From sequence record NC_041874.1: DNA of 49,628 bases; one strand, written 5' to 3'. Of the stretch, positions 9,373-35,301 are shown piece after piece. Under the pieces are notes generated by a model. That model did no database searches, had not been told where the DNA came from, and saw only the letters and a program-made list of their open reading frames with translations. Within the stretch, counting starts at the first letter, position 1; each line of letters begins with the position of its first letter. The DNA is from Escherichia phage JMPW1. The position numbers and the translations under genes were made by a program.

Positions 9373-9391
9373 ATAGCACTAAATGTTAAAC
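9373..9391 (+). promoter_or_regulatory. Box (late-type context: no hairpin, immediately upstream of RBS)
   Basis: ATAGCACTAAATGTTAAAC preceded by -10-like TAAAAT. Confidence 0.45.
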
Positions 9392-9406
9392 AAAGAGGAT
9401 GGATTT

Positions 9407-9931
9407 ATGAGTGAACCTAAGAACGCCCCCGTAGTCCAGGGAGGTAATTTCAAAGAGCTATACAAGAAAAAGTTCGGCACTGTTCTTGCTAAAAACCGGG
9501 CAATGACGCCTGAGCAACTATTCGATCTGTCAGTTAAGTATTTCGAATGGGCTGAGGACAACGCAATCAAGGCGTCAGAATCAGCCAGCTTTCAGGGTGG
9601 CGTTTATGAATCGCTAGTTCATAAGCCGCGAGTCTTCACCTGGACCGGATACCGACTATTCATCGGTGCAAGCGAGGCAGCAATCATTAAGTGGAAGCGA
9701 GAGGAAGAATACAGTGAGGTTATGGAGTTTGTGGAATCGGTAATCAACGAGCAAAAATTCCAGCTTGCCGCCAACGGTGTTATTAATGCCTCCTTTATCG
9801 GTAAGGATCTCGGAATCGATAAGCCAGCCTCAATCAATATCGAAAACTCGTCAGCTTCCGCATCGACAGTAGTCGCCACCACTGAGGATGCAATGAAAGA
9901 GGCAGTAAATAGCATTCTTGACATGCTTTAA
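9407..9931 (+). CDS. terminase small subunit (putative)
   Basis: Position directly upstream of large terminase; start at ATG 9407 after AAAGAGGA. Confidence 0.5.
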   Translation: MSEPKNAPVVQGGNFKELYKKKFGTVLAKNRAMTPEQLFDLSVKYFEWAEDNAIKASESASFQGGVYESLVHKPRVFTWTGYRLFIGASEAAIIKWKREEEYSEVMEFVESVINEQKFQLAANGVINASFIGKDLGIDKPASINIENSSASASTVVATTEDAMKEAVNSILDML

Positions 9932-9970
9932 CGTTACGGGCGCGCGAGCGCCCACATGGGAGACTTAATC

Positions 9971-11539
9971 ATGATTCAATGGGAAGACCTTAACGCAACG
10001 CAGAAGTTAGCGATCAAGAAAATGAGCGAGGCCAATTTCGAAAAAATGATTCGGATCTGGTTCCAGCTTATGCAGGCGCAGCAGTTCCAGCCTAACTGGC
10101 ATCACCTTTACCTATGTCACGAAGTGGAGGAAATAATTGCAGGCCGACGCGGCAACACTATCTTTAACGTCACGCCTGGTTCCGGTAAAACTGAAGTGTT
10201 CTCAATTCACCTTCCGGTATACGCAATGCTCAAGTGTAAAAAGGTGCGAAACCTTAACGTGTCGTTTGCCGACAGCTTGGTTAAGCGTAACAGTAAGCGT
10301 GTCCGTGAGATTATCAGCAGCAACGAATTTCAAGAGCTATGGCCTTGCAAGTTCGGCACATCGAAAGACGAGGAGATGCAGGTTCTTAACGAAGATGGAA
10401 AGGTTTGGTTTGAGTTGATATCCGCAGCGGCTGGAGGTCGTATTACAGGTTCGCGTGGTGGCTACATGACGCCGGGATTCTCCGGTATGGTAATGCTCGA
10501 CGATATCGACAAGCCTGATGATATGTTCTCAAAGGTTAAGCGTGAGCGTACGCATATGCTACTGAAGAACACCATTCGCTCGCGCCGTATGCACAACGAA
10601 ACGCCAATCATCGCAATTCAGCAGCGACTACACGCACAGGATTCAACATGGTTCATGATGAATGGCGGGATGGGGATCGAGTTTGATCAAATCTCAATTC
10701 CGGCACTGGTGACTGAAGAATACGGAAAGACGCTTCCTGACTGGTTACAACCATACTTCGAGCGCGACGTTTTGTCGTCTGAGTATGTAGAATTGGATGG
10801 AGTTAAGCATTACTCATTCTGGCCCAGCAAGGAAAGCGTTCACGACCTGTTAGCTCTTCGAGAAGCGGACCAGTATACCTTTGACTCTCAGTATCAGCAG
10901 AAGCCGATCGCGCTTGGTGGCTCCGTGTTCAATTCGGAGTGGTGGACTTATTACGGCAGCAGCCTTGACGCTGATGAGCCGGATCCTGGTAAATATGATT
11001 ACCGTTTTATCACCGCTGATACCGCTCAGAAGACAGGTGAGCTAAACGACTACACAGTCTTTTGTTTATGGGGTAAGAAAAACGATAAGGTTTACTTTAT
11101 CGACGGCATTCGCGGAAAGTGGGAAGCGCCGGATATGGAGAAGCAATTTACCGCTTTCGTCAACCAAGCATGGAGGCACAATAAATCAATGGGGGTGCTT
11201 CGTAAAATCTATGTGGAAGATAAGGCGAGTGGTACGGGCTTAATCCAGAATCTAAGGAAAAAGACTCCGATATCCATCACTCCATTGCAGCGTAACAAAG
11301 ACAAAGTTACCCGAGCTATGGATGCCCAGCCAGTTATTAAAGCCGGGCGCGTGGTTCTGCCAGAAGAGCACCCCATGCTTGCGGAAATTATCGCGGAACA
11401 TAGCGCGTTCACTTACGATGACACGCATCCGCACGACGATATTGTCGATAACTTCATGGACGCTGCAAACATTGAACTACTGACAATTGACGATCCTATC
11501 GAGAGAATGAAGCGACTCGCCGGGATGGTTAAGCGGTAA
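9971..11539 (+). CDS. terminase large subunit
   Basis: Walker A VTPGSGKTE, Walker B-like MVMLDDID, size about 520 aa, followed by portal. Confidence 0.8.
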   Translation: MIQWEDLNATQKLAIKKMSEANFEKMIRIWFQLMQAQQFQPNWHHLYLCHEVEEIIAGRRGNTIFNVTPGSGKTEVFSIHLPVYAMLKCKKVRNLNVSFADSLVKRNSKRVREIISSNEFQELWPCKFGTSKDEEMQVLNEDGKVWFELISAAAGGRITGSRGGYMTPGFSGMVMLDDIDKPDDMFSKVKRERTHMLLKNTIRSRRMHNETPIIAIQQRLHAQDSTWFMMNGGMGIEFDQISIPALVTEEYGKTLPDWLQPYFERDVLSSEYVELDGVKHYSFWPSKESVHDLLALREADQYTFDSQYQQKPIALGGSVFNSEWWTYYGSSLDADEPDPGKYDYRFITADTAQKTGELNDYTVFCLWGKKNDKVYFIDGIRGKWEAPDMEKQFTAFVNQAWRHNKSMGVLRKIYVEDKASGTGLIQNLRKKTPISITPLQRNKDKVTRAMDAQPVIKAGRVVLPEEHPMLAEIIAEHSAFTYDDTHPHDDIVDNFMDAANIELLTIDDPIERMKRLAGMVKR

Positions 11540-11555
11540 TAAATGAGATATAATC

Positions 11556-11584
11556 AGGGCTGTCAATTGACGGCCCTTTTTATT
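11556..11584 (+). terminator. hairpin + T-run between terminase and portal
   Basis: AGGGCTGTC...GACGGCCCT followed by TTTTTATT. Confidence 0.35.
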
Positions 11585-11593
11585 GGAGGAAAC

Positions 11594-12877
11594 ATGAAAA
11601 TTGTTAAGCATGATGGATATAACGATATTTTTAACGGCGGTGCAGACGGATCGCCTAAGCCATTCTTTATGTCTGATGCATCATATCACGTCGGTTCTTT
11701 CTACAACGACAACGCAACCGCGAAGCGAATTGTGGATGTTATCCCGGAAGAGATGGTGACGGCTGGTTTTAAAATGTCAGGCGTTAAGGATGAAAAAGAG
11801 TTCAAGTCTTTATGGGATAGCTACAAACTTGATTCAAGTCTGGTGGATCTTCTTTGTTGGGCGCGACTTTACGGTGGCGCGGCGATGGTGGCAATCATCA
11901 ACGACAACCGGATGTTAACCAGTCAGGCAAAGCCTGGAGCCAAACTTGAAGGCGTCCGAGTTTACGATCGATTTGCTATCACTGTTGAAAAGCGAGTCAC
12001 CAATGCAAGATCCCCTCGCTATGGTGAGCCTGAAATCTACAAGGTATCCCCTGGCGACAATATGCAGCCGTATCTGATTCATCACTCAAGAGTCTTTATT
12101 GCTGATGGTGAGCGAGTAACGCAACAGGCAAGAAAACAGAATCAAGGATGGGGAGCATCGGTATTGAACAAGTCACTGATTGATGCAATCTGTGACTATG
12201 ATTACTGTGAATCTCTGGCTACTCAGATCTTGAGACGTAAGCAACAGGCTGTATGGAAGGTCAAAGGTCTTGCCGAAATGTGTGATGATGATGATGCTCA
12301 GTACGCCGCGCGCCTGCGACTTGCTCAGGTTGATGATAACTCCGGCGTGGGCCGTGCGATCGGTATCGATGCTGAGACTGAGGAATATGACGTTCTCAAC
12401 TCTGATATCAGCGGAGTTCCTGAGTTCTTATCAAGCAAGATGGACCGCATCGTCTCCCTATCCGGGATCCATGAGATTATCATCAAGAATAAGAACGTAG
12501 GCGGCGTATCAGCGAGCCAAAACACAGCGCTTGAGACTTTCTATAAGCTAGTCGATCGCAAGCGCGAGGAAGATTACAGGCCGCTTCTTGAGTTCTTGTT
12601 GCCGTTCATTGTTGATGAGGAAGAGTGGTCGATCGAGTTTGAGCCTTTGTCTGTTCCGAGTAAGAAAGAGGAATCAGAGATCACGAAGAATAACGTTGAG
12701 TCAGTCACGAAGGCTATCACTGAGCAAATCATCGATCTGGAAGAAGCTCGCGACACGTTGCGATCCATTGCCCCTGAGTTCAAACTCAAGGATGGTAATA
12801 ACATCAACATTCGCGAACCGGAAGAAACAACCGAACCGGAGCCGGGATTAGGGGAGAAGTTAGAAGATGAAAATTAA
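11594..12877 (+). CDS. portal protein
   Basis: About 427 aa, directly after TerL, acidic C-terminus; start ATG 11594 after GGAGGA. Confidence 0.7.
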   Translation: MKIVKHDGYNDIFNGGADGSPKPFFMSDASYHVGSFYNDNATAKRIVDVIPEEMVTAGFKMSGVKDEKEFKSLWDSYKLDSSLVDLLCWARLYGGAAMVAIINDNRMLTSQAKPGAKLEGVRVYDRFAITVEKRVTNARSPRYGEPEIYKVSPGDNMQPYLIHHSRVFIADGERVTQQARKQNQGWGASVLNKSLIDAICDYDYCESLATQILRRKQQAVWKVKGLAEMCDDDDAQYAARLRLAQVDDNSGVGRAIGIDAETEEYDVLNSDISGVPEFLSSKMDRIVSLSGIHEIIIKNKNVGGVSASQNTALETFYKLVDRKREEDYRPLLEFLLPFIVDEEEWSIEFEPLSVPSKKEESEITKNNVESVTKAITEQIIDLEEARDTLRSIAPEFKLKDGNNINIREPEETTEPEPGLGEKLEDEN

Positions 12878-13628
12878 TGGCGTTGCAACACAGTGGCGCT
12901 ATCCTGAAATGAGCGAGCGCGCAATGTCGCGCTCCCTACAGGATGTTGCAGCCAAACTAACTGAAAAAATGCGTGACGAATTAAAGCCGATGAAATTTGA
13001 CGCTACTGACGAAGAGATAGATCAGACAGAAAGGTCATTGCTTGATTACGTCGAATCACTCATCGCTCCGATTATTGGTTCTCTATCATCCGTTGCGCTC
13101 GCGATCTATAAATTCAACTCTAAGCAGTGGCTGCGCATCGCTCGCAATGCTGGAGGTAAGAAGAATCAAGCCGTGATGCTACTAGCCCTGATTGGTCCTA
13201 CCGCTGCCGAAAGCTGGTACTCAGGACAATATAATCTGTGGCGATCGCAGGTGACTACTTCTATCAGGAAATTTGCCGCCAACATGGTTACTGATTTCAC
13301 TGATAAACTTCGTGCGGCATCCGGTCAGGGTAAAAGCAAGGATTTTGTTGTTGAACTTGCTAAGGAGCGATTTGGTATTTACCGTAGCTGGGCCAAAAAT
13401 AGAGCGTCGGGAATTGTCGGAACCTGGAACAGTAGACTGATGCGGCAGCGCATAAAAGACGCTGGTGTATCTTACTATTTCTGGCGCGGGGTGATGGATT
13501 TACGCGAACGTGAAAAACATGTAAGATGGGAAGGTAAGCGCATAGCGGTAGATTCCGATCACGTATTCCCGGGTGAAGAATACAACTGCCGCTGTTGGGC
13601 TGTTCCAGACTTTTCTACAGGAGATTAA
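12867..13628 (+). CDS. minor head / head morphogenesis protein (putative)
   Basis: Gene order portal then morphogenesis protein; 253 aa with C-terminal CRCW motif. Confidence 0.45.
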   Translation: MKINGVATQWRYPEMSERAMSRSLQDVAAKLTEKMRDELKPMKFDATDEEIDQTERSLLDYVESLIAPIIGSLSSVALAIYKFNSKQWLRIARNAGGKKNQAVMLLALIGPTAAESWYSGQYNLWRSQVTTSIRKFAANMVTDFTDKLRAASGQGKSKDFVVELAKERFGIYRSWAKNRASGIVGTWNSRLMRQRIKDAGVSYYFWRGVMDLREREKHVRWEGKRIAVDSDHVFPGEEYNCRCWAVPDFSTGD

Positions 13629-13630
13629 AA

Positions 13631-14743
13631 ATGAAGGCAAAGCAAAGATTCGATTCAGTAAAAATCAAGGCTCACTTTGATGATAACGGTTTTTTAGTTG
13701 ACCGCCCAATCGTGGCGCGAATCGGCGCTCAGGTTTACAAAACGCCGCACGGCGATCGAGTTGAGTTCCGTCCGGCGTCCGAAGTTTTCAAGCAAGATTC
13801 CTTGCAAAGTTTTGCAGGCAAGCCGATAACAGTCGGTCACGTAACGGTGACACCCCAAAATGCTAAGGACGTTGTTGTCGGATCGTGTGCTGGCGCTGGT
13901 ATTGCTTCAGGGGTTGGCGTTGAAGTTCCTTTGAGTATTTACAGCGACTACGCGATCAGCAAAGCTAAAGCGAAGGAGGCCGGGGAATTATCTGTAGGGT
14001 ATACGTCGGTAGATATTGATAAGCCCGGCTGGGGTTCAAATGAGACTGGAGAATATATCTTCGAAGAGGATATGAAACAGGACGAAGCGCCGCCTGAAGG
14101 TTGGGTGAAATTCGACGCGGTACAAACTAATATCAAGGTCAACCATATTGCCCTAGTTTTTAAAGGTCGTGCGGGAATTGCTAAATTAAATCTTGATGCC
14201 GAACAGGAGTTCCCGTATGATAATAACGTTCAATTAACTAACGAGGACAAGCAAATGAAAAAAATTAAGATCGACTCAGTTGATGTGGAAGTAACCGAAG
14301 ACGTTGCGAACCATATCGAAAAATTAACCGCGCAGATTGCCACCATTCAGGGGAAAGCTGATGGCTTCGAAGCTGAGCGCGATGCGCTGAAGGTTAAGGT
14401 TGACTCTCTGCCGGAACTTGTGAAGGCCGAGGTAGAGAAGCAAAAAGCCGATGCCGCCGCACGCGCAGAAGTTACCGCAGTAGCAGAAACCGCAGGCGTC
14501 AAACATGATGGTCTTGATATCAAAGACGTCAAGATTGCCGTAGTTAAAGCCATGCTTGATAAAGATGTTAGTGAAAAATCAGACGCATATATCGACGCTA
14601 TGTTTGATGTTGCTAAAGATTCTGATATCATGGCTATTCAGCGTAAAGCAGTAAAAGGCGACTCTATCGAAGGCGGTAAGCCGGAAGAGAAAAACGACGC
14701 CGCGCCTGTTACGCCAAATTCACGTTTAAGCAAAGTAATGTAA
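13631..14743 (+). CDS. putative scaffolding / prohead protein
   Basis: Position before capsid genes; coiled-coil-like E/K/A-rich segment. Confidence 0.4.
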   Translation: MKAKQRFDSVKIKAHFDDNGFLVDRPIVARIGAQVYKTPHGDRVEFRPASEVFKQDSLQSFAGKPITVGHVTVTPQNAKDVVVGSCAGAGIASGVGVEVPLSIYSDYAISKAKAKEAGELSVGYTSVDIDKPGWGSNETGEYIFEEDMKQDEAPPEGWVKFDAVQTNIKVNHIALVFKGRAGIAKLNLDAEQEFPYDNNVQLTNEDKQMKKIKIDSVDVEVTEDVANHIEKLTAQIATIQGKADGFEAERDALKVKVDSLPELVKAEVEKQKADAAARAEVTAVAETAGVKHDGLDIKDVKIAVVKAMLDKDVSEKSDAYIDAMFDVAKDSDIMAIQRKAVKGDSIEGGKPEEKNDAAPVTPNSRLSKVM

Positions 14744-14754
14744 GGGGAAATATC

Positions 14755-15231: not shown

Positions 15232-15247
15232 TTAGCGTTTAATATGG

Positions 15248-15279: not shown

Positions 15280-15293
15280 ATGGAGAAATCATT

Positions 15294-16061: not shown

Positions 16062-16081
16062 CATAAAAACACTTTGACGCT

Positions 16082-16132
16082 TTAACAAAAAGTGCTATTA
16101 TTGAAGCCGTGAACATAATCACGGCTTTTTTA
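16082..16132 (+). promoter_or_regulatory. Reverse-orientation box + IR AGCCGTGA/TCACGGCT enclosing CATAAT, followed by T-run (promoter/terminator composite before capsid gene)
   Basis: TTAACAAAAAGTGCTAT 16082-16098; hairpin 16105-16126; T6 16126-16131. Confidence 0.5.
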
Positions 16133-16152: not shown

Positions 16153-17112
16153 ATGACTACTAAAAAATTTGATGAAGCAGATAAAAGCAATGTTGAAATG
16201 TATCTGATCCAGGCTGGCGTAAAACAGGATGCAGCCGCAACGATGGGTATCTGGACCGCTCAGGAACTACACCGCATCAAGAGTCAGTCCTATGAAGAAG
16301 ACTACCCGGTCGGCTCCGCTCTACGAGTATTCCCGGTTACAACCGAACTCTCTCCGACCGACAAGACGTTTGAGTACATGACCTTTGATAAGGTTGGTAC
16401 TGCTCAGATTATCGCTGACTATACCGATGACCTGCCTCTGGTTGATGCACTTGGTACTTCTGAATTTGGTAAGGTGTTCCGTTTGGGTAACGCGTATCTG
16501 ATCTCAATCGACGAAATCAAAGCAGGTCAGGCAACTGGTCGCCCACTGTCAACCCGTAAGGCGAGCGCGTGCCAGTTGGCGCATGATCAGCTTGTTAACC
16601 GCCTGGTGTTCAAAGGTTCCGCACCGCACAAGATTGTGTCCGTGTTTAACCATCCGAACATCACTAAAATTACCTCCGGTAAGTGGATTGATGCATCTAC
16701 TATGAAGCCGGAAACTGCGGAAGCTGAGCTAACTCAAGCGATCGAAACCATCGAGACGATTACTCGGGGTCAGCACCGCGCAACCAACATCCTGATCCCG
16801 CCTTCCATGCGTAAGGTTTTGGCGATTCGTATGCCTGAGACAACCATGTCTTATCTGGACTATTTTAAGTCTCAGAACTCCGGTATCGAAATCGACTCTA
16901 TCGCAGAGCTTGAGGATATTGACGGCGCAGGCACCAAAGGCGTACTGGTGTACGAAAAGAATCCGATGAACATGTCCATCGAGATCCCGGAAGCATTTAA
17001 TATGCTGCCAGCACAACCGAAAGACTTGCACTTTAAAGTGCCTTGCACTTCTAAGTGTACTGGTCTTACAATTTATCGCCCGATGACTATTGTCTTAATC
17101 ACTGGCGTGTAA
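16153..17112 (+). CDS. major capsid protein (putative)
   Basis: 319 aa, flanked by terminators, strong RBS GGAGAAG, position after scaffold/decoration genes. Confidence 0.6.
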   Translation: MTTKKFDEADKSNVEMYLIQAGVKQDAAATMGIWTAQELHRIKSQSYEEDYPVGSALRVFPVTTELSPTDKTFEYMTFDKVGTAQIIADYTDDLPLVDALGTSEFGKVFRLGNAYLISIDEIKAGQATGRPLSTRKASACQLAHDQLVNRLVFKGSAPHKIVSVFNHPNITKITSGKWIDASTMKPETAEAELTQAIETIETITRGQHRATNILIPPSMRKVLAIRMPETTMSYLDYFKSQNSGIEIDSIAELEDIDGAGTKGVLVYEKNPMNMSIEIPEAFNMLPAQPKDLHFKVPCTSKCTGLTIYRPMTIVLITGV

Positions 17113-19780: not shown

Positions 19781-19805
19781 GGGGGCTTGCGCCCCCTTAT
19801 TCATT
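19781..19805 (+). terminator. intrinsic terminator after major tail gene
   Basis: GGGGGC-TTGC-GCCCCC then TTATTCATTT. Confidence 0.55.
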
Positions 19806-19843
19806 TCTGTAAAATCATCCTATCAACTCTATTCACTTAACTT

Positions 19844-19860
19844 TTAACAAAAAGTGCTAT
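19844..19860 (+). promoter_or_regulatory. Reverse-orientation box in leader of tail chaperone gene
   Basis: TTAACAAAAAGTGCTAT, then CCAATCAGGAGA RBS. Confidence 0.45.
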
Positions 19861-19881: not shown

Positions 19882-20199
19882 ATGGCTAAATTCAATTTCG
19901 TGTTGGGCCAGCTTCCAGACTTCAAACTTCCGGTGACGTTCACCATGCCAAACGGCGAGGATGCAACTATTATTTTTACAGTGCGCCACCTTTCCAGTAA
20001 AGAAGTGCAAGATATGTATGCGAAGCAGGGCGAAATGAATGATAGCGATTTCATCACTAAGATCGCGTCAGGCTGGAATCTGGAAGAAGAATTTAACGAA
20101 GAGAATACGCGTAAACTGGTACAGTATTATCCTTCCGCAGCGTACAACCTGACGGCAACTTACATCAAGGCGCTTGCCGGACACCGCGCAAAAAACTAA
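19882..20199 (+). CDS. tail assembly chaperone (G-like)
   Basis: Position between major tail and tape measure; ends at slippery site. Confidence 0.6.
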   Translation: MAKFNFVLGQLPDFKLPVTFTMPNGEDATIIFTVRHLSSKEVQDMYAKQGEMNDSDFITKIASGWNLEEEFNEENTRKLVQYYPSAAYNLTATYIKALAGHRAKN

Positions 20200-23430: not shown

Positions 23431-23784
23431 ATGGCTGCACTTGACACTTTCGGTTGGTGTACGCAGGTTCAAGGGGGCGGCGGCTCCCTTACCACTACCA
23501 ATAACGACCGCTCCATCCAGTTTGGTAACGGCTACATGCAGCTTGCATCGTCTGGATTTAACACCACTCGACGCGAGTATTCAGTCGTCTATGCCGGGGA
23601 AGATTTCATGGCTGTTTACGACTTCTGCAACTCTCACCGCATAAAGCCGTTCGCATGGACGCCGCCGGACGGGAAGATCGGAATATGGGTTGTAAAGCCT
23701 AACAGCTTGGGAGCTAAGCCAGTATCACGCGACGTGATGGAAATTAACGTAACGTTTATGGAGCAGTTTACATCTATGGAATAG
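23431..23784 (+). CDS. minor tail protein M-like
   Basis: Size and motifs FGNGY.Q and FAWTPP recalled from lambda gpM. Confidence 0.7.
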   Translation: MAALDTFGWCTQVQGGGGSLTTTNNDRSIQFGNGYMQLASSGFNTTRREYSVVYAGEDFMAVYDFCNSHRIKPFAWTPPDGKIGIWVVKPNSLGAKPVSRDVMEINVTFMEQFTSME

Positions 23785-23873
23785 CACCTCATGACAAAAG
23801 CCCGCCTTGCGCGGGTGGCGCTCAGGTTTACAGATTTCACGGAGAGAATATCCAGTACACTCCAGAAGAAATA

Positions 23874-25810: not shown

Positions 25811-25838
25811 AACCCGCCTTGCGCGGGTTTTTTTTCGC
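25811..25838 (+). terminator. intrinsic terminator
   Basis: AACCCGCC-TTGC-GCGGGTT then T8. Confidence 0.65.
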
Positions 25839-25861
25839 CTGTATAATGAGTCCACCGATAA

Positions 25862-25880
25862 ATAGCACAAAAAGGTAAAC
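25862..25880 (+). promoter_or_regulatory. Box variant in leader of central fibre gene (downstream of -10 TATAAT 25842-25847)
   Basis: ATAGCACAAAAAGGTAAAC directly before ATG 25884. Confidence 0.4.
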
Positions 25881-25883
25881 ATC

Positions 25884-28800
25884 ATGATTCAAAAAGTGAT
25901 AAGTGGATCTAAAGGCGGCTCGCCTAAGCCTCATAATCCAGTTGAGATGGAAGACAATCTAATCTCAATCAACAAAATCAAGATCCTGTTAGCTGTATCT
26001 GATGGTGAAATTGACGAAACATTCAGCCTGAAGCAGTTGATGTTTAACTCAGTCCCGGTGCAAAACGAGGATGGATCGTTCAACTTCGAAGGGGTAAAGG
26101 CTGAGTTCAGGCCGGGAACTCAGACGCAGGAATACATCAAGGGCATGGAGGATAGTTCCAGCGAGGTAACTGTAAATCGTGAGGTTACTACCGATAACCC
26201 ATACACGATCTCAGTGACCAATAAAACACTATCGGCAATACGCATCAAAATGTTCATGCCTCGCGGTGTACGAATTGAAAGTAACGGTGATAAAAATGGC
26301 GTAAGAGTTGAGTATGAGGTGCAACAAGCTGTTGATGGCGGTTCGTTTGAGACTGTTCTTACTGACGTAATTGAAGGCAAAACAATGTCAGGTTACGACA
26401 GAAGTCGACGTGTAAACCTGCCTAGCTTTAACAACCAGGTAATATTCAGAGTTGTTCGAAAGACTCCAGACTCTAACGACTCTAACGTTGTTGATGCGAT
26501 CCAGGTAAAGAGCTATGCCGAGGTGATTGATGCCAAATTCCGTTACCCTCTGACAGGTCTTCTTTTCGTCGAGTTCGACTCGAAGATGTTCCCAAACCAG
26601 TTACCTACGATCTCAATTCGTAAGCGCTGGAAGATTGTAAACGTTCCATCAAACTACGATCCGGAATCACGAACCTACAACGGCAATTGGGATGGGACTT
26701 TCAAGAAGGCGTGGACTAACAACCCGGCATGGGTTCTATACGATCTGATGATTAATCAGCGCTACGGTCTGGATCAGAAGGAGCTTGGAATCTCCGTCGA
26801 TAAATGGGCGCTCTACGAGGCCGCGCAATATTGCGATCAGATGGTTCCTGATGGGAAGGGCGGGACGGAGCCTAGATACCTTTGCGACGTGATAATTCAG
26901 TCACAGACTGATGCGTACAAGGTGATTCGAGATATTTGCTCAATATTCCGTGGCATGAGCTTCTGGAATGGTGAAAGCATCTCGGTAATCATCGACAGAC
27001 CGCGTGAGCCTGCGTACATCTTCACTAACGACAACGTTGTTAATGGTGACTTCTCCTATACGTTCGCAAGCGAAAAGAGTATGTACACGACGTGTAACGT
27101 GATGTTTGACGATGAACAAAACATGTATCAACAGGACGTTGAGCCAGTATTCGATCGCGAGGCGACTCTGCGGTTCGGTAATAACGTAACCAGCATTACA
27201 GCGATAGGTTGCACGCGTCGAAGCGAGGCTAACCGACGAGGGCGATGGATTCTGAAGACCAACCTTCGCAGCACTACGGTAAACTTCGCGACCGGACTGG
27301 AAGGGATGATCCCGACAATCGGAGATGTTGTGGCAATAGCTGATAACTTCTGGTCAAGTAACTTGACGATGAACCTATCAGGGCGCTTGCTCGAAGTGTC
27401 TGGAAGTCAGATTTTCTTGCCGTTCCGTGTGGATGCACGCGCGGGTGACTTTATTATCGTAAATAAGCCAGATGGCAAGCCCGTGAAGCGCACAATCTCA
27501 AGCGTTAGTGCGGATGGCAAGACTATAGAGATTAACATCGGCTTTGGCTTTCCTGTAAAGCCTAACACGGTATTCGCTATCGACAGAACCGACATTGCGT
27601 TACAGCAGTACGTCGTGACAAAAATCGATAAGGGCGATGATGACGAGGAATTTACCTACAAAATCACGGCGGTGGAGTACGATCCTAACAAGTACGATGA
27701 GATTGATTACGGAGTTAACATCGACGACAGGCCGACGAGCATCGTTGAACCAGATCAGATCCCTAGACCGGAAAACGTGCAAGTGTCCTCAGAGTCGAGA
27801 ATCGTCCAGGGGATGAGCGTAGAAACGATGATTGTTAGCTGGGATAAAGTGCCGTACGCAGTTTTCTATGACGTACAGTGGAGAAAGGATAACGGCAACT
27901 GGCAAAACGTTCCGCAGACAGCAAACAAAGAGGTTTATGTTGAAGGGATTTACGCTGGCAACTATCAGGTTCGCGTTCGCTCCGTAGCTGGTTCCGGTAC
28001 GACTTCAGGATGGTCAAATGTCGTAGCTGCGACGCTGACGGGCAAACAAGGTGAGCCGGGTGGACCGATTAACCTTACAGCTACGGATGATGTTGTTTTT
28101 GGTATCCGTACAAAATGGGGGTTCTCTGATGGTTCTGGAGATACGGCCTATACAGAGTTGCAACAGTCACCAGATGGAACAGTGGATAACGCAAGTTTGC
28201 TTTCTTTGATTCCGTACCCGCAGCATGAGTATTATCACTCACCGATGCCTGGAGGGAATATTGTTTGGTATCGTGTAAGGACGGTTGATAGGATCGGTAA
28301 CGTGTCTCAGTGGACTGATTTTGTCAGAGGTATGGCATCAACAAACGTTGACGATATCATTGGGGAGATTTCTGTCGATATCGAAAACTCGCCGGGTTAC
28401 GAGTGGCTTGTTGATAACGCAACCGACAACGCGGCGCAGAACGCAGCTAACGCAGAGGCAGCAATAGAAAACGCGCTCGCCAATGACAAAGACGCGATCT
28501 ACATGAAGAAGGAGAACGGAAAACGAAAAGCTGAGTACACGAAATCACTGAAACTTATTGCTGATGAGACGCAGGCGCGAGTGACGGCGATCGAGCAATT
28601 GAAGGCAAGTTTTGGCGATCAGATTAGCGCTAGCAACAGCGAATTGCGTGAAGTTATCGCAACTGAGACTGGAGCGCTATCGCGTGAAATTGACCAACTC
28701 AGGGCAGAGATTGGTGATGATATCCAGGCAAGTTTGACCGATATCAGAGAGGCTATAGCAAACGAGACTGAGGCGAGAACGCAAGCTGACTTGTCGTTAA

Positions 28801-29303
28801 GCGCGAGGCTTGGGAATAATGAGGCAGCACTTTCTCAAAAACTTGATTCGTGGAGCAATGCAGATTCGACTGGTGCAATGTACGGCGTCAAGCTCGGTCT
28901 GAAGTATAACGGCCAAGAATACAGTGCAGGCATGGCTATGTCTCTGATTGGTTCCGGAGCTGCGGTTAAGGCGCAGATTTTGTTTGAGGCATCACGATTT
29001 GCCATCATGAATGGAATGAATGGTCAGACTCAGTACCCATTCGTTGTTGAGAATGGCCAGGTTATTTTAAGTAGCGCGATTATCAAGAACGGATTCATCA
29101 CTAACGCAATGATTGGAAACTTCATCCAGTCGAATAACTATGTATTTAACCAGTCCGGATGGAGGCTTGACAAGGGTGGAACATTCGAAAACTACGGAAG
29201 TGACGGTGAGGGTGCAATGAAGCAAACTAATACCACAATATCTGTTAGGGATGCGAGTGGTCGCCTGAGGGTTCAGATTGGCAGGTTGACTGGTTCATGG
29301 TAA
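25884..29303 (+). CDS. central tail fibre / host specificity protein J-like
   Basis: 1139 aa, last gene of M-L-K-I-J order. Confidence 0.8.
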   Translation: MIQKVISGSKGGSPKPHNPVEMEDNLISINKIKILLAVSDGEIDETFSLKQLMFNSVPVQNEDGSFNFEGVKAEFRPGTQTQEYIKGMEDSSSEVTVNREVTTDNPYTISVTNKTLSAIRIKMFMPRGVRIESNGDKNGVRVEYEVQQAVDGGSFETVLTDVIEGKTMSGYDRSRRVNLPSFNNQVIFRVVRKTPDSNDSNVVDAIQVKSYAEVIDAKFRYPLTGLLFVEFDSKMFPNQLPTISIRKRWKIVNVPSNYDPESRTYNGNWDGTFKKAWTNNPAWVLYDLMINQRYGLDQKELGISVDKWALYEAAQYCDQMVPDGKGGTEPRYLCDVIIQSQTDAYKVIRDICSIFRGMSFWNGESISVIIDRPREPAYIFTNDNVVNGDFSYTFASEKSMYTTCNVMFDDEQNMYQQDVEPVFDREATLRFGNNVTSITAIGCTRRSEANRRGRWILKTNLRSTTVNFATGLEGMIPTIGDVVAIADNFWSSNLTMNLSGRLLEVSGSQIFLPFRVDARAGDFIIVNKPDGKPVKRTISSVSADGKTIEINIGFGFPVKPNTVFAIDRTDIALQQYVVTKIDKGDDDEEFTYKITAVEYDPNKYDEIDYGVNIDDRPTSIVEPDQIPRPENVQVSSESRIVQGMSVETMIVSWDKVPYAVFYDVQWRKDNGNWQNVPQTANKEVYVEGIYAGNYQVRVRSVAGSGTTSGWSNVVAATLTGKQGEPGGPINLTATDDVVFGIRTKWGFSDGSGDTAYTELQQSPDGTVDNASLLSLIPYPQHEYYHSPMPGGNIVWYRVRTVDRIGNVSQWTDFVRGMASTNVDDIIGEISVDIENSPGYEWLVDNATDNAAQNAANAEAAIENALANDKDAIYMKKENGKRKAEYTKSLKLIADETQARVTAIEQLKASFGDQISASNSELREVIATETGALSREIDQLRAEIGDDIQASLTDIREAIANETEARTQADLSLSARLGNNEAALSQKLDSWSNADSTGAMYGVKLGLKYNGQEYSAGMAMSLIGSGAAVKAQILFEASRFAIMNGMNGQTQYPFVVENGQVILSSAIIKNGFITNAMIGNFIQSNNYVFNQSGWRLDKGGTFENYGSDGEGAMKQTNTTISVRDASGRLRVQIGRLTGSW

Positions 29304-29310
29304 TATCAAG

Positions 29311-29336: not shown

Positions 29337-29348
29337 GGAGGATTTATT

Positions 29349-29654
29349 ATGGCGTACGGTATATCAACTTGGGACGCAAATGGCGTTTATAATAACTATG
29401 GAATTAAGCCTGTTACGGTTGTTGGTTGGAACTTTTTGTCAGCAGGACAGAATTCAGCATCGTTCAGCTATCAAGTTCCTCCTGGTATGCATGTGAACTA
29501 CGTTATAAGCCTTGACGATGGCGCCATTAGTGGGCCTGGCAGGAAAATTATTGCTAGCGGTAATACGATAACAGTAACGCCAACAAACTCACCTGGGCCA
29601 AACGTGTACCCATCATCAAACTGTTACTTAATAGCATATCTGGAGAATGATTAA
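29349..29654 (+). CDS. hypothetical tail-associated protein (101 aa)
   Basis: ORF trimmed to ATG after GGAGGA. Confidence 0.4.
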   Translation: MAYGISTWDANGVYNNYGIKPVTVVGWNFLSAGQNSASFSYQVPPGMHVNYVISLDDGAISGPGRKIIASGNTITVTPTNSPGPNVYPSSNCYLIAYLEND

Positions 29655-30343: not shown

Positions 30344-30366
30344 GCCCCTTGCGGGGCTTTTCTTTT
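30343..30366 (+). terminator. intrinsic terminator ending late operon
   Basis: AGCCCC-TTGC-GGGGCT then TTTCTTTT. Confidence 0.65.
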
Positions 30367-30592
30367 ATATCGAGCAATCGTGAGACTTGAAGTTTTTCTC
30401 TGATACGTAGTTGAATGAGAATGGGTATCCAGCACGCAATAGCATCTCCTCTCCGCGCATCTTAGATCCAAAAACGTAAACCGAGTACTCTGCGCCTCCT
30501 GATTCATAAATTGCCGTACAAGTGCGCTCAGGCATCGATGAGCAACCAGTCAGGATGAATGCCGCAGCGATAATGGTGATTAACTTTTTCAT
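30365..30592 (-). CDS. small lipoprotein, candidate superinfection-exclusion protein (Cor/Llp-like)
   Basis: Signal peptide ending in lipobox LTGC; lone reverse-strand gene downstream of tail genes; own sigma70 promoter. Confidence 0.45.
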   Translation of the reverse strand: MKKLITIIAAAFILTGCSSMPERTCTAIYESGGAEYSVYVFGSKMRGEEMLLRAGYPFSFNYVSEKNFKSHDCSI

Positions 30593-31116
30593 TTGTATGT
30601 CCTCGTCGTTAGTGTGATTGCATTGTATGTCGCATTTACTTTTATTGCAATAGCACTATTACAATTTTTTCGTGTAACAGGTGTCTATTTTTGTAACCGG
30701 AGCGGGTGTTACAAAATCCACCCCATCCGACCGCAGAGGGATATGATAAAAACTCTATATAATATATATAGATAGATAATATTTAATTTTAGCTTTATAT
30801 ATAATTATTGTTGTGTAACAGTTGTCTATTGTGTAACTGGTGATTTGATTGATTCGTCAAATTTCTATCATATATGTTCAAAATTTAATCAATATGGATT
30901 CTACTTGTAGCTATCTCTGTATTTCTAAGAAAAAGCGGTTACAAGTATTACACAGTAGACATCACATAAAAATAGACTTAAGCCATTGATTCCGTTAATG
31001 CTGGTTGTAACTTGAGCGATATAGACACGCTATTACACACCAATTACATGTATCCGATTGACTAAACGCTGTTAATGGCTATAATGGATTCATCGTAAAC
31101 GAAGGAGATAAACGCA
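30593..31116. promoter_or_regulatory. Divergent AT-rich control region with iteron-like repeats (candidate origin or early control region)
   Basis: No convincing ORF; direct repeats GTGTAACAG(G/T)TGTCTATT at 30672-30689 and 30813-30830; CTATATAATATATATAG at 30755-30771; several TTACACA motifs. Confidence 0.5.
31058..31085 (+). promoter_or_regulatory. Sigma70-type promoter TTGACT-16 bp-TATAAT for recombination operon
   Basis: -35 31058-31063, -10 31080-31085. Confidence 0.55.
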
Positions 31117-32181
31117 ATGTTCCAAGTATTCACATCAAGTCAGCTTTCTAATGACGAGTATCATAGCAACGAAGGTTGGGCGGCAGAGTATGTAAGCGGT
31201 TCGAGCCTTGCAGAAATTTATCAGACTTGCCCGGCTAACTGGCGATTCAAGAAGAACGAGACGACTAAAGCGCTGGAGTTTGGTACTCAGTCGCACACCA
31301 ACTTTGAGAGCCGAGATCTGTTTACTGCATCGTATGCGCGTTGTCCGGCTCCGGCAGAGTTTAAAGATCTCATTACTTCGCAGGCGGCGCTGGCAGCAAA
31401 ATTAAAATCTTTTGGCCTGAAAGGTACATCCGGTAAGCAGTACCCGGACCTCATCAAAATGATGGTTGATTGTGGCGAAGACCTTAACGTTCAATACCTG
31501 ATTGAACTGATCGCAGAGGCTGAGGCGCGCGCTGAAGGAAAGAAACTCGTCGACGCTGATAAATACGACGCCTGCATGAAGATGAGAGCTATACTTGAAC
31601 AGAACCCCGATCATGAAGCGTGCATCAACAGCGAAACAGCGCAGCGTGAAATCTCAATATTCGGTGAAATATCCGGCGTCAAGGTTAAGGTTCGACTAGA
31701 TCATCTTGACTACAAAGAGAATGTACCAGGTCGTGTACTGACTGGTTATGATGAGAATGGTGATCCGGTATTTGAAGACGTAATTTTCCCGGAAGCACTG
31801 ATTATCACAGATTTCAAAACTACGATGAGCGCCAACCCGTTAGAGTTCCCGAGACTGGCATACAATCACGGTTATTACCTGAAGATGGCATTGCAGCATG
31901 ACCTGCTACGTCGCGCAATCCAGGCTGGCGCTTTTGAAGGAAACTTCCCGGAAGATATTCCGATCGTAGTTCGATTGCTTGCGCAGGAGAAAAAAGAGCC
32001 TTATATCGCACTGGCTTACCGTATGACTATGGAGCAAATCAGGATCGGTCGTAACCAGTACATTAGCGTAGTCCACACTTACAAGGCTTGCTCTGAAATG
32101 GATGTTTGGCCTGGGTACGCTGGCGACGCAAGCGAGATCGAACTTGAAACGCCATCATGGGTGCGTTACCAAAATAAGTAA
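31117..32181 (+). CDS. putative recombination exonuclease
   Basis: First gene of exo-ERF-SSB module; D..D/E.K-like ITDFKT segment. Confidence 0.5.
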   Translation: MFQVFTSSQLSNDEYHSNEGWAAEYVSGSSLAEIYQTCPANWRFKKNETTKALEFGTQSHTNFESRDLFTASYARCPAPAEFKDLITSQAALAAKLKSFGLKGTSGKQYPDLIKMMVDCGEDLNVQYLIELIAEAEARAEGKKLVDADKYDACMKMRAILEQNPDHEACINSETAQREISIFGEISGVKVKVRLDHLDYKENVPGRVLTGYDENGDPVFEDVIFPEALIITDFKTTMSANPLEFPRLAYNHGYYLKMALQHDLLRRAIQAGAFEGNFPEDIPIVVRLLAQEKKEPYIALAYRMTMEQIRIGRNQYISVVHTYKACSEMDVWPGYAGDASEIELETPSWVRYQNK

Positions 32182-32255
32182 ACGGCACAAATAGCTAAAC
32201 AAATAATTAATGAGGTGTTATAATGCACCTCATACACCAATCAGGAGAAGTTAAG

Positions 32256-32903
32256 ATGCAATTATCACCAGAAACAAACGAAATCCTTCCTGCACTGTTC
32301 AATGCTCGCAACAAATTCGCGAAAGCAAAGAAGGACGCTAAAAACAATCACCTGAAAAACTCATACGCAACTCTTGATGCAATGATGGCGGCAGTAAGCC
32401 CAGCACTAACCGATAACGATATTATGATCCTGCAATCAATGCTGGATACCAGCACTGAAACAACTTTCCATCTTGAAACTATGCTTATTCACAAATCCGG
32501 GCAGTGGGCCAAATTCTTCATGATGATGCCGATTGCAAAGCGCGATCCGCAAGGCGTAGGTTCCGCAATGACGTATGCTCGACGTTACTCATTAGCCGCA
32601 GCGCTGGGGATTAGCCAGAGTGATGACGATGCTCAGCTTGCAGTGAAATCTGTCAAGGACTGGAAAAAAGAACTTGATGCGTGTGAAGATATCGAATCAC
32701 TGAAAGAGGCATGGGCTAACGCTTACCGCCAGACGGACACGGCAAGCAAGTCAATCATTCAGGATCACTACAACGCACTTAAGGCTAAGTTTGAGATCGG
32801 TAAAGCTCGTGGCATTCGCCCGGCGCAACCGGAACAGAAAAAACAGGTTGAAGCAACGAGCGCGAAGCCTGTACAATCTCAATCAATCACCAACTTCGAA
32901 TAA
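32256..32903 (+). CDS. erf: ERF-family single-strand annealing protein
   Basis: Motif GVGSAMTYARRYSLAAALGI; adjacent to SSB and exonuclease; start at ATG 32256 after CAGGAGA. Confidence 0.65.
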   Translation: MQLSPETNEILPALFNARNKFAKAKKDAKNNHLKNSYATLDAMMAAVSPALTDNDIMILQSMLDTSTETTFHLETMLIHKSGQWAKFFMMMPIAKRDPQGVGSAMTYARRYSLAAALGISQSDDDAQLAVKSVKDWKKELDACEDIESLKEAWANAYRQTDTASKSIIQDHYNALKAKFEIGKARGIRPAQPEQKKQVEATSAKPVQSQSITNFE

Positions 32904-32948
32904 CCATCAGGGCGGCTTCGGTCGCCCATAAATTTTAGGAGAGAAATA

Positions 32949-33365
32949 ATGCATATTATCACTGGCGAGATCCGCAAAGAACCTAAGATTCTTGAACGTA
33001 ACGGCGGCAATACTTATATCATCGAACTGGCAGAAAGCTATAAGCCTCGCGATGGCGATCGTGAATACACCAACTACACATTCTTTTTTAGCGATGGTGG
33101 AAAGCCTGGCCTTGCTGACTGGTATCGTGAAGCGTTCCAGGTTGGTCGCGTAGTATCAGTGTCGTGCGAAACTCTGAAAATCTCATCCCGTGAGCACAAC
33201 GGAACTGTTTACAATTCATTGCAGGCCGCTGATTTTCCTAAGCTGGTATTCAGTCAGCGAGGACAAAGCAATCAACAACAGCGATCGCCTCAGCAACAAC
33301 AGCGAACTCAACAACAACCACAACCGAACCATCAGTCAACATTTGACGATGATATCCCATTCTAA
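32949..33365 (+). CDS. ssb: single-stranded DNA-binding protein
   Basis: Gln/Pro-rich linker and acidic C-terminal tail DDDIPF. Confidence 0.8.
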   Translation: MHIITGEIRKEPKILERNGGNTYIIELAESYKPRDGDREYTNYTFFFSDGGKPGLADWYREAFQVGRVVSVSCETLKISSREHNGTVYNSLQAADFPKLVFSQRGQSNQQQRSPQQQQRTQQQPQPNHQSTFDDDIPF

Positions 33366-33368
33366 TAA

Positions 33369-33397
33369 GAAAGCCCCGCATTGCGGGGCTTTTCTTT
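33369..33397. terminator. bidirectional intrinsic terminator
   Basis: Palindrome AGCCCCGCA/TGCGGGGCT flanked by A-run and T-run. Confidence 0.65.
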
Positions 33398-35243
33398 ATG
33401 ATTGTTTAAGTGATTTTATTTCTTCTTTTAGAGAAGATACTTGCTTTGAAAGCTCCTGTATCGCAGCTATAGCGTCAAGCAAAAGAACGTTCTCATCCAG
33501 TGATAGCGTGTAATCTTCTCCATTCATATTTCCGTACTTTCTAACGTACTGACTATCTATGCTCATAAGTTGTTGAGCTATGAACCCTCTCCTTACAGTT
33601 TTCTCCTTGTCATAATTGTATGTGAATGATCGGTATTTCATTTTCATCAAATTATCAAGCGCCAATCTTGTTTCAATATCATTTATGTCGCTTTTAAGTC
33701 TCTCATCTGACACTGGAGACTTTGAAAATATATAGTTGACAGTACCTGAGTTATTCCCAAACGTTATGTCGTAACTCTCAGCGTTGAACGATGTATTCCT
33801 TACAATGTTACCGTTTGGCTGATTACCTGAAGCTATATCATAATCGTACACCTGAGATATTACCGCGTGGGGGTGAGAACCATTTGGAAAAATAAGCGAA
33901 CCAAGAGAGATAAAATTCCTCCAACCGCCGTTGGATACACCAACGCCGCCACCAACTAAACCAATATAACCGCTGTACTGAGAACTCATCCATGTGTTAG
34001 CCAATGTCAAATAGGTATTACCTGGAGCATATCCAGTTCCATTTGGTACTAGACCCTTGTTAAAAATCAACTTTCCGTCCAGTTTGAAATCCCACGTTGC
34101 CGCGCCCTGCTTATATCTGTCATTGATTGTTGTTATCCTTGTCCATATATCTATTTCATTACCTCCCTGCAATTCGAAAGAGGATCTGTACTTATCAACT
34201 TCACCAACCTTGAATTTTGAATCAATCCTGCCGCCTGAAGAATCGGAACCGCTTGGCGGCTCAGAGTCTACATTTTTATAAATAGACCAGTCGTTTACTT
34301 TTAGGCCTTTCTCAACCCAACCCTTAGTAGTTGCGTCCATATTGCCTTCAGGATCTTTAAGTAACTCTAATGGGGCGTCTGGCCTCAAGTTTTTCCATGA
34401 TTCTAATTTATCCTCAAGACCAGCTAAATTACCGTCCTTAGTTAAAAGATTGTCAGCATTAACGCTATTTGCTGCGTCTTTCGCTTCCTGAGCACTTACT
34501 GCCGCCGCGTCTTTTGAACTAACCGCATCATCACGCGCCGATTGAGCATCGTTCTTTGCAGAGGTTGCAGTTTGTGCTGCCGTTTGAGCGTCATTAACGT
34601 AACCTGATAAATCACCTTTCGCCTCATTAATGGCCTGAATCGCTGCCGCCTCTTCAGTGTCAATGTGAGTGATGACAGATGATTCCTTAGATCCGATATC
34701 AGTAATAGCCTGTTCCTTTGCTGCATTAATACTACCTACAGCACCGTCAACAATTTGTTGAGTCTGGTTCTTGATTGAGTTAGTTTCATCGCGTGCAGCG
34801 TTGGCTGCGTCACGCGCTAATTCAGCCTGATTTTGCGCAGCTTGAGAATCAGGTTTCGCCTTATTCACCTCAGTAACTATTTGCTCAAGTTTATCCATAT
34901 CAAGCTGATTGATGATATCAAGAGCCGCAGCAATCTCAGTTTCTTTGCTCTGGTAGTATCGCAGCGTTTCAGCAACGTTTTGAGCTAAGCCGTTTACAGT
35001 CAGTGAATCGTTAAGCAGGATCACATACTTACCGTCAGCGGCAGTCTGACCATCCGTAGAGATAGCCTTTAACTCAGTGTCGCTCACGATATCGCTGATT
35101 ACAGCCAGCTTAATTGGTTGCTCCAGGAATACGATAGTTGCACCTACTCGAATCAGAGCAAGCTGATCCTTCCATTTTGTATCGGTTCCGCGAACCGTTC
35201 CATCTGCATCCATTGATGCTGTACCGCGTCTATATAAAGCCAT
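33396..35243 (-). CDS. tail fibre with C-terminal intramolecular chaperone (peptidase S74-like) domain
   Basis: 615 aa; coiled-coil A/Q/D-rich shaft; C-terminal SDERLKSDINDIETRLALDNL segment. Confidence 0.7.
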   Translation of the reverse strand: MALYRRGTASMDADGTVRGTDTKWKDQLALIRVGATIVFLEQPIKLAVISDIVSDTELKAISTDGQTAADGKYVILLNDSLTVNGLAQNVAETLRYYQSKETEIAAALDIINQLDMDKLEQIVTEVNKAKPDSQAAQNQAELARDAANAARDETNSIKNQTQQIVDGAVGSINAAKEQAITDIGSKESSVITHIDTEEAAAIQAINEAKGDLSGYVNDAQTAAQTATSAKNDAQSARDDAVSSKDAAAVSAQEAKDAANSVNADNLLTKDGNLAGLEDKLESWKNLRPDAPLELLKDPEGNMDATTKGWVEKGLKVNDWSIYKNVDSEPPSGSDSSGGRIDSKFKVGEVDKYRSSFELQGGNEIDIWTRITTINDRYKQGAATWDFKLDGKLIFNKGLVPNGTGYAPGNTYLTLANTWMSSQYSGYIGLVGGGVGVSNGGWRNFISLGSLIFPNGSHPHAVISQVYDYDIASGNQPNGNIVRNTSFNAESYDITFGNNSGTVNYIFSKSPVSDERLKSDINDIETRLALDNLMKMKYRSFTYNYDKEKTVRRGFIAQQLMSIDSQYVRKYGNMNGEDYTLSLDENVLLLDAIAAIQELSKQVSSLKEEIKSLKQS

Positions 35244-35263
35244 AGTATAAACTCCTTAAGTAA

Positions 35264-35301
35264 ATAGCACTAATTGCTAAACGCTGATTTTATCATTGTG
35301 C
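35264..35301 (-). promoter_or_regulatory. Box in leader of tail fibre gene
   Basis: ATAGCACTAATTGCTAAAC 35264-35282 plus GTGCTAT at 35295-35301; minus-strand -10-like GATAAAAT. Confidence 0.45.

Follow-up and report, generated by a model that had tools for sequence, protein, structure and literature searches.

The window analysed here, the 49,628-nucleotide (nt) sequence record NC_041874.1 of Escherichia phage JMPW1, is a complete T1-like genome (Drexlerviridae, Tunavirus) with 99.9–100% identity to Escherichia phage phi2013, from which the gene names are taken over, and ~96% identity to T1. The classic phage T1 is notorious as a contaminant of laboratories, and to our knowledge the order of its early and late transcription, which proceeds without an own polymerase or sigma factor, has never been explained. 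The element under study is a short repeated DNA box that lies at five late genes of this genome, where a first-pass annotation had pointed it out, and also at about 18 early and middle promoters. The late genes and their boxes are listed below; box coordinates refer to a 20-mer, scores in bits to the matrix described further on, and positions such as −8 to the predicted transcription starts, which fall near 9381 for terS, 16108 for capsid, 19822 for chaperone, 25854 for J, and 35280 (minus strand) for tail fibre. Relatives are contigs of the IMG/VR database with the capsid gene and 10-kb flanks, which gave up to 58 distinct upstream regions, and the late sites were also compared across T1, ESP2949-1, vojen, Sushi, and EC3a.

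9407–9931, the terS gene
9373–9392, plus strand, the terS box, ATAGCACTAAATGTTAAACA, a perfect consensus match of 16.1 bits at about −8 to +12
16153–17112, the major capsid gene
16079–16098, minus strand, the capsid box, 16.3 bits, at about −29 to −10
19882–20199, the tape-measure chaperone gene
19841–19860, minus strand, the chaperone box, 16.3 bits, present in 29 of 49 relatives and always reversed
25884–29303, the J-like central fibre gene
25862–25881, plus strand, the J box, 12.4 bits with one mismatch, at about +9 to +28 of the leader
33396–35243, minus strand, the tail fibre gene
35264–35283, plus strand (the gene being on the minus strand), the tail fibre box, 18.6 bits, which is the matrix maximum

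At all five late places the box was found as an asymmetric 20-mer, aaATAGCAC-N3-TTGYTAAAAc, and far beyond chance, as had been claimed; the TAGCA-N5-TGCTA dyad core alone occurs 10 times in the window against 0.05 expected. Its sequence follows the consensus of the marbox, AYnGCACnnWnnRYYAAAY (PMC3709825), with GCAC and YAAA one helical turn apart. The window contains 5 perfect and 16 one-mismatch matches to this consensus, where simulated sequence leads one to expect 0.03 and 1.1; the terS and tail fibre copies have no mismatch, and the capsid, chaperone, and J copies have one each. A matrix was built from 87 sites of MarA/SoxS/Rob/RamA mapped in Salmonella by chromatin immunoprecipitation sequencing (ChIP-seq; PMC10268841), and its consensus GCACTAATTGCTAAA is identical, letter for letter, with the core of the tail fibre box. 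On this matrix the phage boxes reach 16–18.6 bits, where the training sites do not exceed 18.5 and have their median at 11.5, and 24 matches of at least 14 bits are present in the window against 1.1 expected. In the late block (9323–30343, 21 kb) only 4.3% of the bases are non-coding, and all four matches of at least 14 bits fall in them. The logo of 63 copies from five genomes of different genera reads A, T, A, GCAC, N3, TTG, Y, TAAA, with GCAC and the AAA 3′ of TGYTA invariant, while the flanks beyond the ChIP matrix agree with the classical “AYn” (A in 57/63, T or C in 58/63). By its sequence the box is a marbox, the site of monomeric AraC-type regulators of Enterobacteriaceae, and binding of such a regulator is predicted. 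An exact-pattern scan of IMG/VR returned multi-copy matches almost only in contigs of ~50 kb or fragments and scattered single matches elsewhere. A sigma-54 promoter (TGGCAC-N5-TTGCW) was also considered and rejected, since the box has AG in place of GG and 3 rather than 5 bases between CAC and TTGC, and the conserved −10 element is 22 nt further on.

The same element is known from the TLS paper of 2024, where 21 copies of a 21-nt direct repeat, aaATAGCACnnnTTGnTAAAA, were described, with similar repeats in T1, Rtp, and Rogue1 (PMC11447400). These repeats were said to be oriented with transcription, ~76 nt ahead of start codons, and their function was left open between stoperator, enhancer, and UP element; Table S1 of that paper contains, without comment, the copy at the capsid site as DR7, on the opposite strand, and the copy at J as DR8 (PMC11447400). 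The TLS paper neither separates the late architectures nor mentions the marbox.

The binding site of a dimeric protein, as which the box had been proposed, is not what the sequence resembles. A Cro/CI-type operator has dyad half-sites and flanks and no preferred orientation, whereas here both the sequence and its conservation are asymmetric: in the 63 copies the positions mirroring AAA are A and not T, and position 11 is C in 40 and T in 21 copies, its mirror G being invariant. The orientation is fixed at each orthologous site (terS 14/14 forward, capsid 56/56 reversed, chaperone 29/29 reversed, and J 30/30 forward), so that the statement that the box occurs in either orientation is valid across sites and not within any of them. 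This invariance indicates selection at each site and argues against a symmetric binder.

The early and middle boxes, ~18 in number, point towards their genes and have no usable −35 hexamer. The hexamer TAnnnT, with a background of 1.5%, stands exactly 18 bp after the 20-mer in 13 of the 24 matches, three more have a CATAAT-type hexamer at 18 bp, and another two have a hexamer at 17 or 19 bp. Two representative sites are the following:

7542–7561, plus strand, an early cassette: box, 18 bp, TATAGT, and a gene start 56 nt past the box
36806–36825, plus strand, the reference early/middle box, 17.7 bits, with TATTAT at +18, conserved in all five genera

With the 18-bp spacing the G of GCAC is 35 bp before the −10, which places GCAC at −47 to −44 and AAA at −35 to −33, that is, at the positions contacted by Rob in the class II complex at micF (G-47, A-45, and A/T at −35/−34; PMC9178005). 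This geometry falls within the class II windows of the Grainger laboratory and near the −41 position of RamA at micF, and chromosomal class II promoters, like these, are devoid of a −35 hexamer. A forward box over the −35 region, centred near −41 and without a consensus −35, was found at the ~18 early/middle boxes and at a leftward promoter of the chaperone site described below; the terS, capsid, J, and tail fibre copies lie outside this geometry and therefore cannot act as class II sites. Judged from the letters, the early/middle cassettes are textbook class II marbox promoters with unusually good boxes. Chromosomal class II promoters of the mar/sox/rob regulon, such as micF, lpxC, lpxL, and rfaY, share with them the asymmetric 20-bp sequence, the forward orientation, the distance to the −10, and the lack of a −35; the virulent phage differs in having ~24 near-optimal copies per 50 kb, whereas chromosomal sites are degenerate (median 11.5 versus 16–18.6 bits). 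The likeness, predicted here from the DNA, covers the early/middle copies and the leftward chaperone promoter.

Several further features accompany the early and middle boxes. The box 36806–36825 occupies the class II position for the helicase promoter and also falls within the leader of the divergently oriented gene of the helix-turn-helix (HTH) protein Gp53; the −10 hexamers of this divergent pair overlap on opposite strands (TATTATA, 36844–36850), the overlap is flanked by the arms AACGTTTAC and GTAAACGTT (window 36806–36873), and the arrangement is kept in all five genera. Early promoters carry an inverted repeat of 7–9 bp around each −10 (for example 1075–1110, 4122–4155, and 7562–7595, and 30336–30365 in contig L005), the right arm of which begins at the last two bases of TATAGT; the arms vary between cassettes while their complementarity is kept. 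In Sushi and ESP2949-1 the whole hairpin is situated between the box and the −10; it often reads CCCGGC-GAAA-GCCGGG with TATTATT behind it, and resembles a terminator overlapping the next promoter. A box of 17.0 bits at 32182–32201 (plus strand) precedes the erf recombinase gene with TGtTATAAT at +17, and this −10 overlaps the ATG at 32223. Near the window ends, the box at 102–121 (minus strand, 17.7 bits) has no −10 at class II distance, and that at 49524–49543 (minus strand) has TATGAT at +19.

The late copies do not form one architecture. They are strong at four sites and weak at J; all five adjoin an intrinsic terminator and lie upstream of a ribosome-binding site (RBS), with the box following the terminator at four sites and directly preceding it at the capsid gene. 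The best-conserved case is the capsid site, which consists of two features besides the box:

16074–16101, plus strand, the capsid promoter TTGACG-16-TGcTATTAT, with 10 of 12 consensus matches plus the TG
16103–16128, plus strand, a terminator-like hairpin with a T-run, starting 2 nt past the capsid −10

Here the reversed box takes up all 16 bp of the spacer and reaches into the −10 (TTGACG-c-TTTAACAAAAAGTGC-TATTAT), and its GTGC supplies the TGn of the extended −10. The −35, the spacing, and the extended −10 are kept in 56/58 distinct upstream regions, and the reversed box in the same layout (−35, 1 nt, 15-nt core, −10) likewise in 56/58, down to 57% capsid identity; in relatives the site is preceded by an A-tract and followed by a hairpin of varying sequence. 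A −10 at +18 on the strand of the box itself is present in only 2/56 relatives, which shows that the capsid box is not an antisense promoter. The first-pass annotation had placed the late boxes between the −10 and the RBS and without the variable hairpin; the first part suits the chaperone box, which lies between TAAAAT and the RBS, and fails at the capsid gene, and the second is correct in general, with the exception of the capsid box directly before its hairpin (16103–16128). The predicted capsid start falls in the 5′ arm of this hairpin, whose region folds at −20.1 kcal/mol (z = −3.1).

A terminator-like hairpin within a few bases, with the predicted start inside its 5′ arm, was also noted at the portal promoter (11556–11577). 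At the capsid and portal hairpins upstream transcripts would terminate, while transcripts begun at the promoter itself would lack the full stem. The portal promoter of 16/49 relatives (loci L123–L152, not Tunavirus) has a forward box ~4 nt before TATAAT, which scores 13.4–18.6 bits and at least 17 bits in 15 of the 16. This adds another placement of the box within a core promoter.

At terS, J, and the tail fibre gene the box follows the −10 of the late promoter:

9366–9374, plus strand, the terS extended −10 TGgTAAAAT, which shares its last two bases with the start of the box
25842–25847, plus strand, the J promoter −10 TATAAT, 13 nt past the terminator 25811–25829
35287–35315, minus strand, the tail fibre promoter TTGCAA-17-TGaTAAAAT, just after the primase terminator (35345–35328)

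The terS −10 is 18 nt downstream of the terminator 9331–9348 and is kept as TGnTAtAAT in all genera compared; the box was found in 14/50 distinct relatives, always forward, and the others keep the promoter with unrelated sequence past the −10. The tail fibre box, reversed relative to its gene, begins 3 nt after TGaTAAAAT at about −3 to +17, and Tunavirus, contig L102, and the distant Guelphvirus EC3a share this placement (2–5 nt past the −10). On its own strand no conserved −10 was found at the class II distance, the hexamers being variable (TATCCG here and TACCTG in T1). In this genome J has a weak copy, in which AGG of the Shine-Dalgarno sequence stands in place of TTG; the box contains this AAGG and ends 2 nt before the ATG. 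A forward box is present at the J site of 30/43 relatives and is good in other genera (14.8–17.1 bits), and the J −10 is kept as GTA(T/C/G)AAT in all genera compared.

The chaperone site was resolved into two opposed promoters:

19810–19815, plus strand, the rightward late −10 TAAAAT of the chaperone/tape-measure unit, which in relatives is TA(A/G/C)AAT after a terminator
19817–19825, minus strand, a leftward extended −10, TGaTAGGAT, exactly 18 bp from the chaperone box

The placement given earlier for this box is correct, but the description missed that it is also coupled to this opposite-strand extended −10 at the 18-bp spacing of the early promoters. Across relatives the box is 100% conserved while the flanks diverge, and on its own strand TAnnnT stands at +18 in 29/29 and TGn in 25/29, with 12 different hexamers. 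The retention of TAnnnT at a fixed +18 in spite of twelve hexamers points to a selected extended −10 and hence to a leftward class II promoter, the RNA of which would be antisense to the major tail gene. The leftward −10 (19822–19817) is 1 nt from the rightward one, and the predicted starts (~19822 rightward and ~19810 leftward) cross over, so that use of one promoter should exclude that of the other.

Overlap of a box with the core promoter (about −35 to +25, in either orientation) was thus found at terS, capsid, and tail fibre and is borderline at J; the chaperone box lies outside this range, its position for the rightward promoter being +20 to +39. Two uniform schemes were tried and given up. 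An antisense class II promoter for every reversed box holds at the chaperone site only (29/29), as opposed to 2/56 at the capsid site and variable hexamers at the tail fibre site, and a class I geometry for the reversed late boxes (centre 53–85 bp before the start) would put the start inside coding sequence. On the whole, part of the earlier observation is confirmed: the boxes exist and are not random, the capsid and chaperone architectures were misdescribed, and J is weak. Beside the boxes, a family-wide late promoter layout was seen, which consists of the terminator T-run, GCCTG(CAAT), and TGnTATAAT without a −35 hexamer (9349–9374, 25830–25847, 19798–19815, and counterparts).

No AraC-type domain was detected by Pfam scans among the 52 phage proteins. 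A phage-encoded MarA-like protein was rejected as a candidate, there being no AraC-type domain and no match for Gp66 and Gp68 in sequence searches of the PDB, to which PHROGs added nothing. The AlphaFold model of Gp68 (45977–46393, minus strand; predicted local distance difference test (pLDDT) 89.6) is all-beta, which is at odds with the HTH-type structural hint given for its homologue in the T1 record. In the model of Gp66 (43920–44327, minus strand; pLDDT 83.9) the N-terminal half resembles a winged helix, and its matches in the PDB are no more than weak (BlaI, NadR, and IclR; E ≥ 0.3). Gp53 (36341–36793), which had been named as the candidate binder, is an HTH regulator according to Pfam and PHROGs, with a Cro/C2-like HTH; both Gp53 and Gp66 are kept in all five genera compared, and nothing links Gp53 to the box. 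The named hosts of the relatives (Escherichia, Shigella, Klebsiella, Salmonella, Cronobacter, Enterobacter, and Citrobacter) are all Enterobacteriaceae, a few “Campylobacter” records apart. MarA, SoxS, and Rob have homologues in many enteric bacteria, with RamA as the related regulator in Klebsiella; Rob is constitutive and abundant, while MarA and SoxS are inducible, scarce, and Lon substrates (PMC7216687). Most likely the binder is a host protein, because the box equals a host-factor consensus, the early promoters precede any phage protein, and no AraC-type domain was found.

From the identity, geometry, conservation, and fixed orientation of the boxes we infer, with a probability of about one half, that a host MarA/SoxS/Rob-type factor activates the early and middle promoters of the phage and occludes the late ones. 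Bound in the class II position, the factor would switch on the ~18 early/middle promoters as at micF. At the late copies class II contacts would be out of reach of a bound factor, which should instead be a competitor of RNA polymerase; these copies lie over the −10 and spacer of the capsid promoter, which is very strong, over the −10 and +1 at terS and tail fibre, and in the first 30 bp of the J leader. The late units each open with a terminator followed by an extended −10 promoter, and of these promoters the factor would damp those of capsid, terS, tail fibre, and probably J. At the chaperone site activator-driven leftward initiation would exclude late initiation, because the leftward −10 abuts the rightward late one, and polymerase would be diverted leftwards. 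As long as the factor is available, the early promoters would be on and the late ones damped, and once it becomes limiting, the late ones would be relieved; the relief may come from titration on replicating phage DNA, with ~24 strong sites per copy, or from decay of the unstable MarA/SoxS after host shut-off. The earlier idea that one factor could be an early activator and a late operator fits here, because the box matches a regulator family that activates from class II sites and represses over core promoters, and because the terS, capsid, and tail fibre copies overlap spacer, −10, or +1. With the dimeric binder, the RNA hairpin, and Gp53 not upheld, that interpretation is partly supported as a whole.

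Several points weigh against the host-factor reading. All transcription starts are predicted from −10 elements. Many early promoters have a good, often extended, −10 and may fire unaided. In unstressed cells Rob is largely sequestered and MarA and SoxS are scarce, so dependence of ~18 promoters on them is not self-evident, and the conserved DNA-binding-type folds of Gp53 and Gp66 are possible binders. The late boxes besides that of the capsid gene are patchy (terS 14/50, chaperone 29/49, and J 30/43) and cannot be the sole late control. Finally, a marbox between −35 and −10 can also activate, as at flgBP2 with sigma-28 (PMC12781870), so the effect at the capsid promoter may be of either sign.

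The alternatives differ mainly in the reader of the box. A phage protein, Gp53 or the winged-helix-like Gp66, might read it, with the early promoters first firing unaided and the protein then modulating them and shutting or opening the late sites; such a scheme agrees with the conservation of both proteins in all five genera, the HTH of Gp53, the winged-helix resemblance of the N-terminal half of the Gp66 model, the true dyad (TAGCA-N5-TGCTA) in the inner 15 bp of some copies, and the box in the leader of the Gp53 gene itself, as autoregulation predicts. It is unlikely in view of the asymmetry of the box in sequence and conservation and its fixed orientation at orthologous sites; moreover, that the box agrees with a host ChIP consensus in 15 bp and the flanks and is as far from the −10 as at micF would be coincidence, and most early/middle promoters have no −35, while the early ones must work before a phage protein exists. 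There is still less probability that RNA polymerase itself reads the box as an upstream or −35-like element (TTGYTA with A/T-rich flanks), the late copies being recombination relics or decoys. TTGCTA and TTGTTA do resemble TTGACA, the cassettes are modular and repeated, and UP-element-like enhancers were weighed by the TLS authors, but TTGYTA is 22 bp from the −10, beyond the 16–18 bp of sigma-70, and UP elements have no counterpart of the invariant ATAGCAC. The late copies keep place and orientation while their flanks diverge, which is not expected of relics.

Other explanations concern the late copies only. That they act in the mRNA as a 5′ leader hairpin (UAGCA-N5-UGCUA) on translation or stability, which had also been proposed, can hardly be believed. 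Boxes do lie near ribosome-binding sites, and the fully palindromic tail fibre variant folds at −3.7 kcal/mol, better than its shuffles, but it is the only one that folds: TGTTA variants give 0 to −1.3 kcal/mol, reversed copies have an A-C mismatch in the stem, and the predicted leaders fold no better than shuffles (z = 0.1–0.8). At terS transcription is predicted to begin within the box and at the capsid gene only downstream of it, and the conserved AAA and 5′ A/T are not part of the stem. The late boxes may also be regarded as protein roadblocks (“stoperators”, a term raised by the TLS authors) that reinforce upstream terminators and insulate late units from early read-through; the terminator adjoining each of the five sites, after which the box stands at four and directly before which at the capsid gene, and the position of the terS site at the early/late boundary on one strand suit such a role. 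It is nevertheless improbable, as monomeric MarA-type proteins leave only subtle footprints, the orientation varies between sites, the capsid box is upstream of its terminator, and the chaperone box has its own conserved −10. The roadblock is a variant of the negative reading, which terS fits best and capsid and chaperone worst.

Among known systems, the closest to the capsid site is pbpG, where a marbox in the spacer is repressed by MarA and SoxS (PMC12052159) and where, as would be the case in the phage, the bound factor competes with RNA polymerase. The phage sites differ from it in that their promoters are very strong or of the extended −10 type and follow terminators directly. Repressive marboxes exist also at purA, hdeA, and rob. 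The middle promoters of T4 depend on a MotA box together with AsiA, the MotA box being centred near −30, ~12 bp from the −10, and its binder phage-encoded. As in T4, the box of the early/middle promoters takes the place of the −35 hexamer and would be read by an activator rather than by sigma region 4; unlike in T4, 18 bp separate its end from the −10 and its sequence agrees with a host factor's site. The stoperators of mycobacteriophage L5 are similar in being many asymmetric copies in short intergenic regions with a proposed negative effect on transcription, but they bind the phage repressor in the lysogen and act on elongation in one orientation, whereas T1-like phages are virulent, most of their copies are in an activating position, and the orientation of the late ones varies between sites. 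As far as bidirectional promoters (Warman et al. 2021) are presented in PMC12781870, the helicase/Gp53 pair with its shared TATTATA and the chaperone −10s 1 nt apart are like them, with the difference that a class II box is present on one arm of each phage pair and would bias the choice of direction.

In the literature searched no paper joining the mar/sox/rob regulators with T1 phages was found, the titles and abstracts retrieved on marbox and bacteriophage contained none on phage promoters, and a poorly targeted search found no transcriptome or transcription start map of a T1-like phage. As far as searched, the marbox identity and the base-pair match to the micF class II geometry appear to be new, as does the resolution of the late copies into core-promoter-overlapping sites plus one antisense class II promoter. 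The marbox reading provides a concrete model that can be tested with standard reagents, and the late-site variants indicate where the same factor should act negatively. In a broader form, which is offered tentatively as possible, the entire temporal programme of phages of the T1 family would depend on a host stress regulator, without a phage-encoded one: the same boxes would recruit Rob/MarA/SoxS early and hold down the capsid, terminase, tail, and fibre promoters, until replication or Lon-driven decay of MarA/SoxS makes the factor limiting and flips early to late. If this is true, a whole phage family exploits the regulators of multiple antibiotic resistance and oxidative stress, and phage development is coupled to the antibiotic and oxidative stress state of the host (salicylate, paraquat, bile, and dipyridyl); antibiotic exposure would then be linked to phage success in Escherichia, Klebsiella, and Salmonella, with a bearing on phage-antibiotic combinations, and synthetic biology would gain a set of natural marbox promoters and operators of great strength.

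One further box belongs to the late region:

23781–23800, plus strand, ATAGCACCTCATGACAAAAG, 14.0 bits, at the stop codon of gene M

This copy is specific to the present lineage, being absent from T1, and a box upstream of gene L was found in only 4/45 relatives. Nearby, at 23816|23817, the window lacks 167 bp of phi2013 and T1: the terminator that follows gene M is without its T-run, and a late promoter (TGTAGAAT), the RBS, and approximately the first 115 nt of the tail-tip gene L are missing as well, so that L is truncated in the window as assembled. At the left end of the genome, Gp01 (1130–1324, plus strand) was assigned to the Pfam family PF25180, “phage antiviral trigger protein Gp54”, with E = 5e-36.

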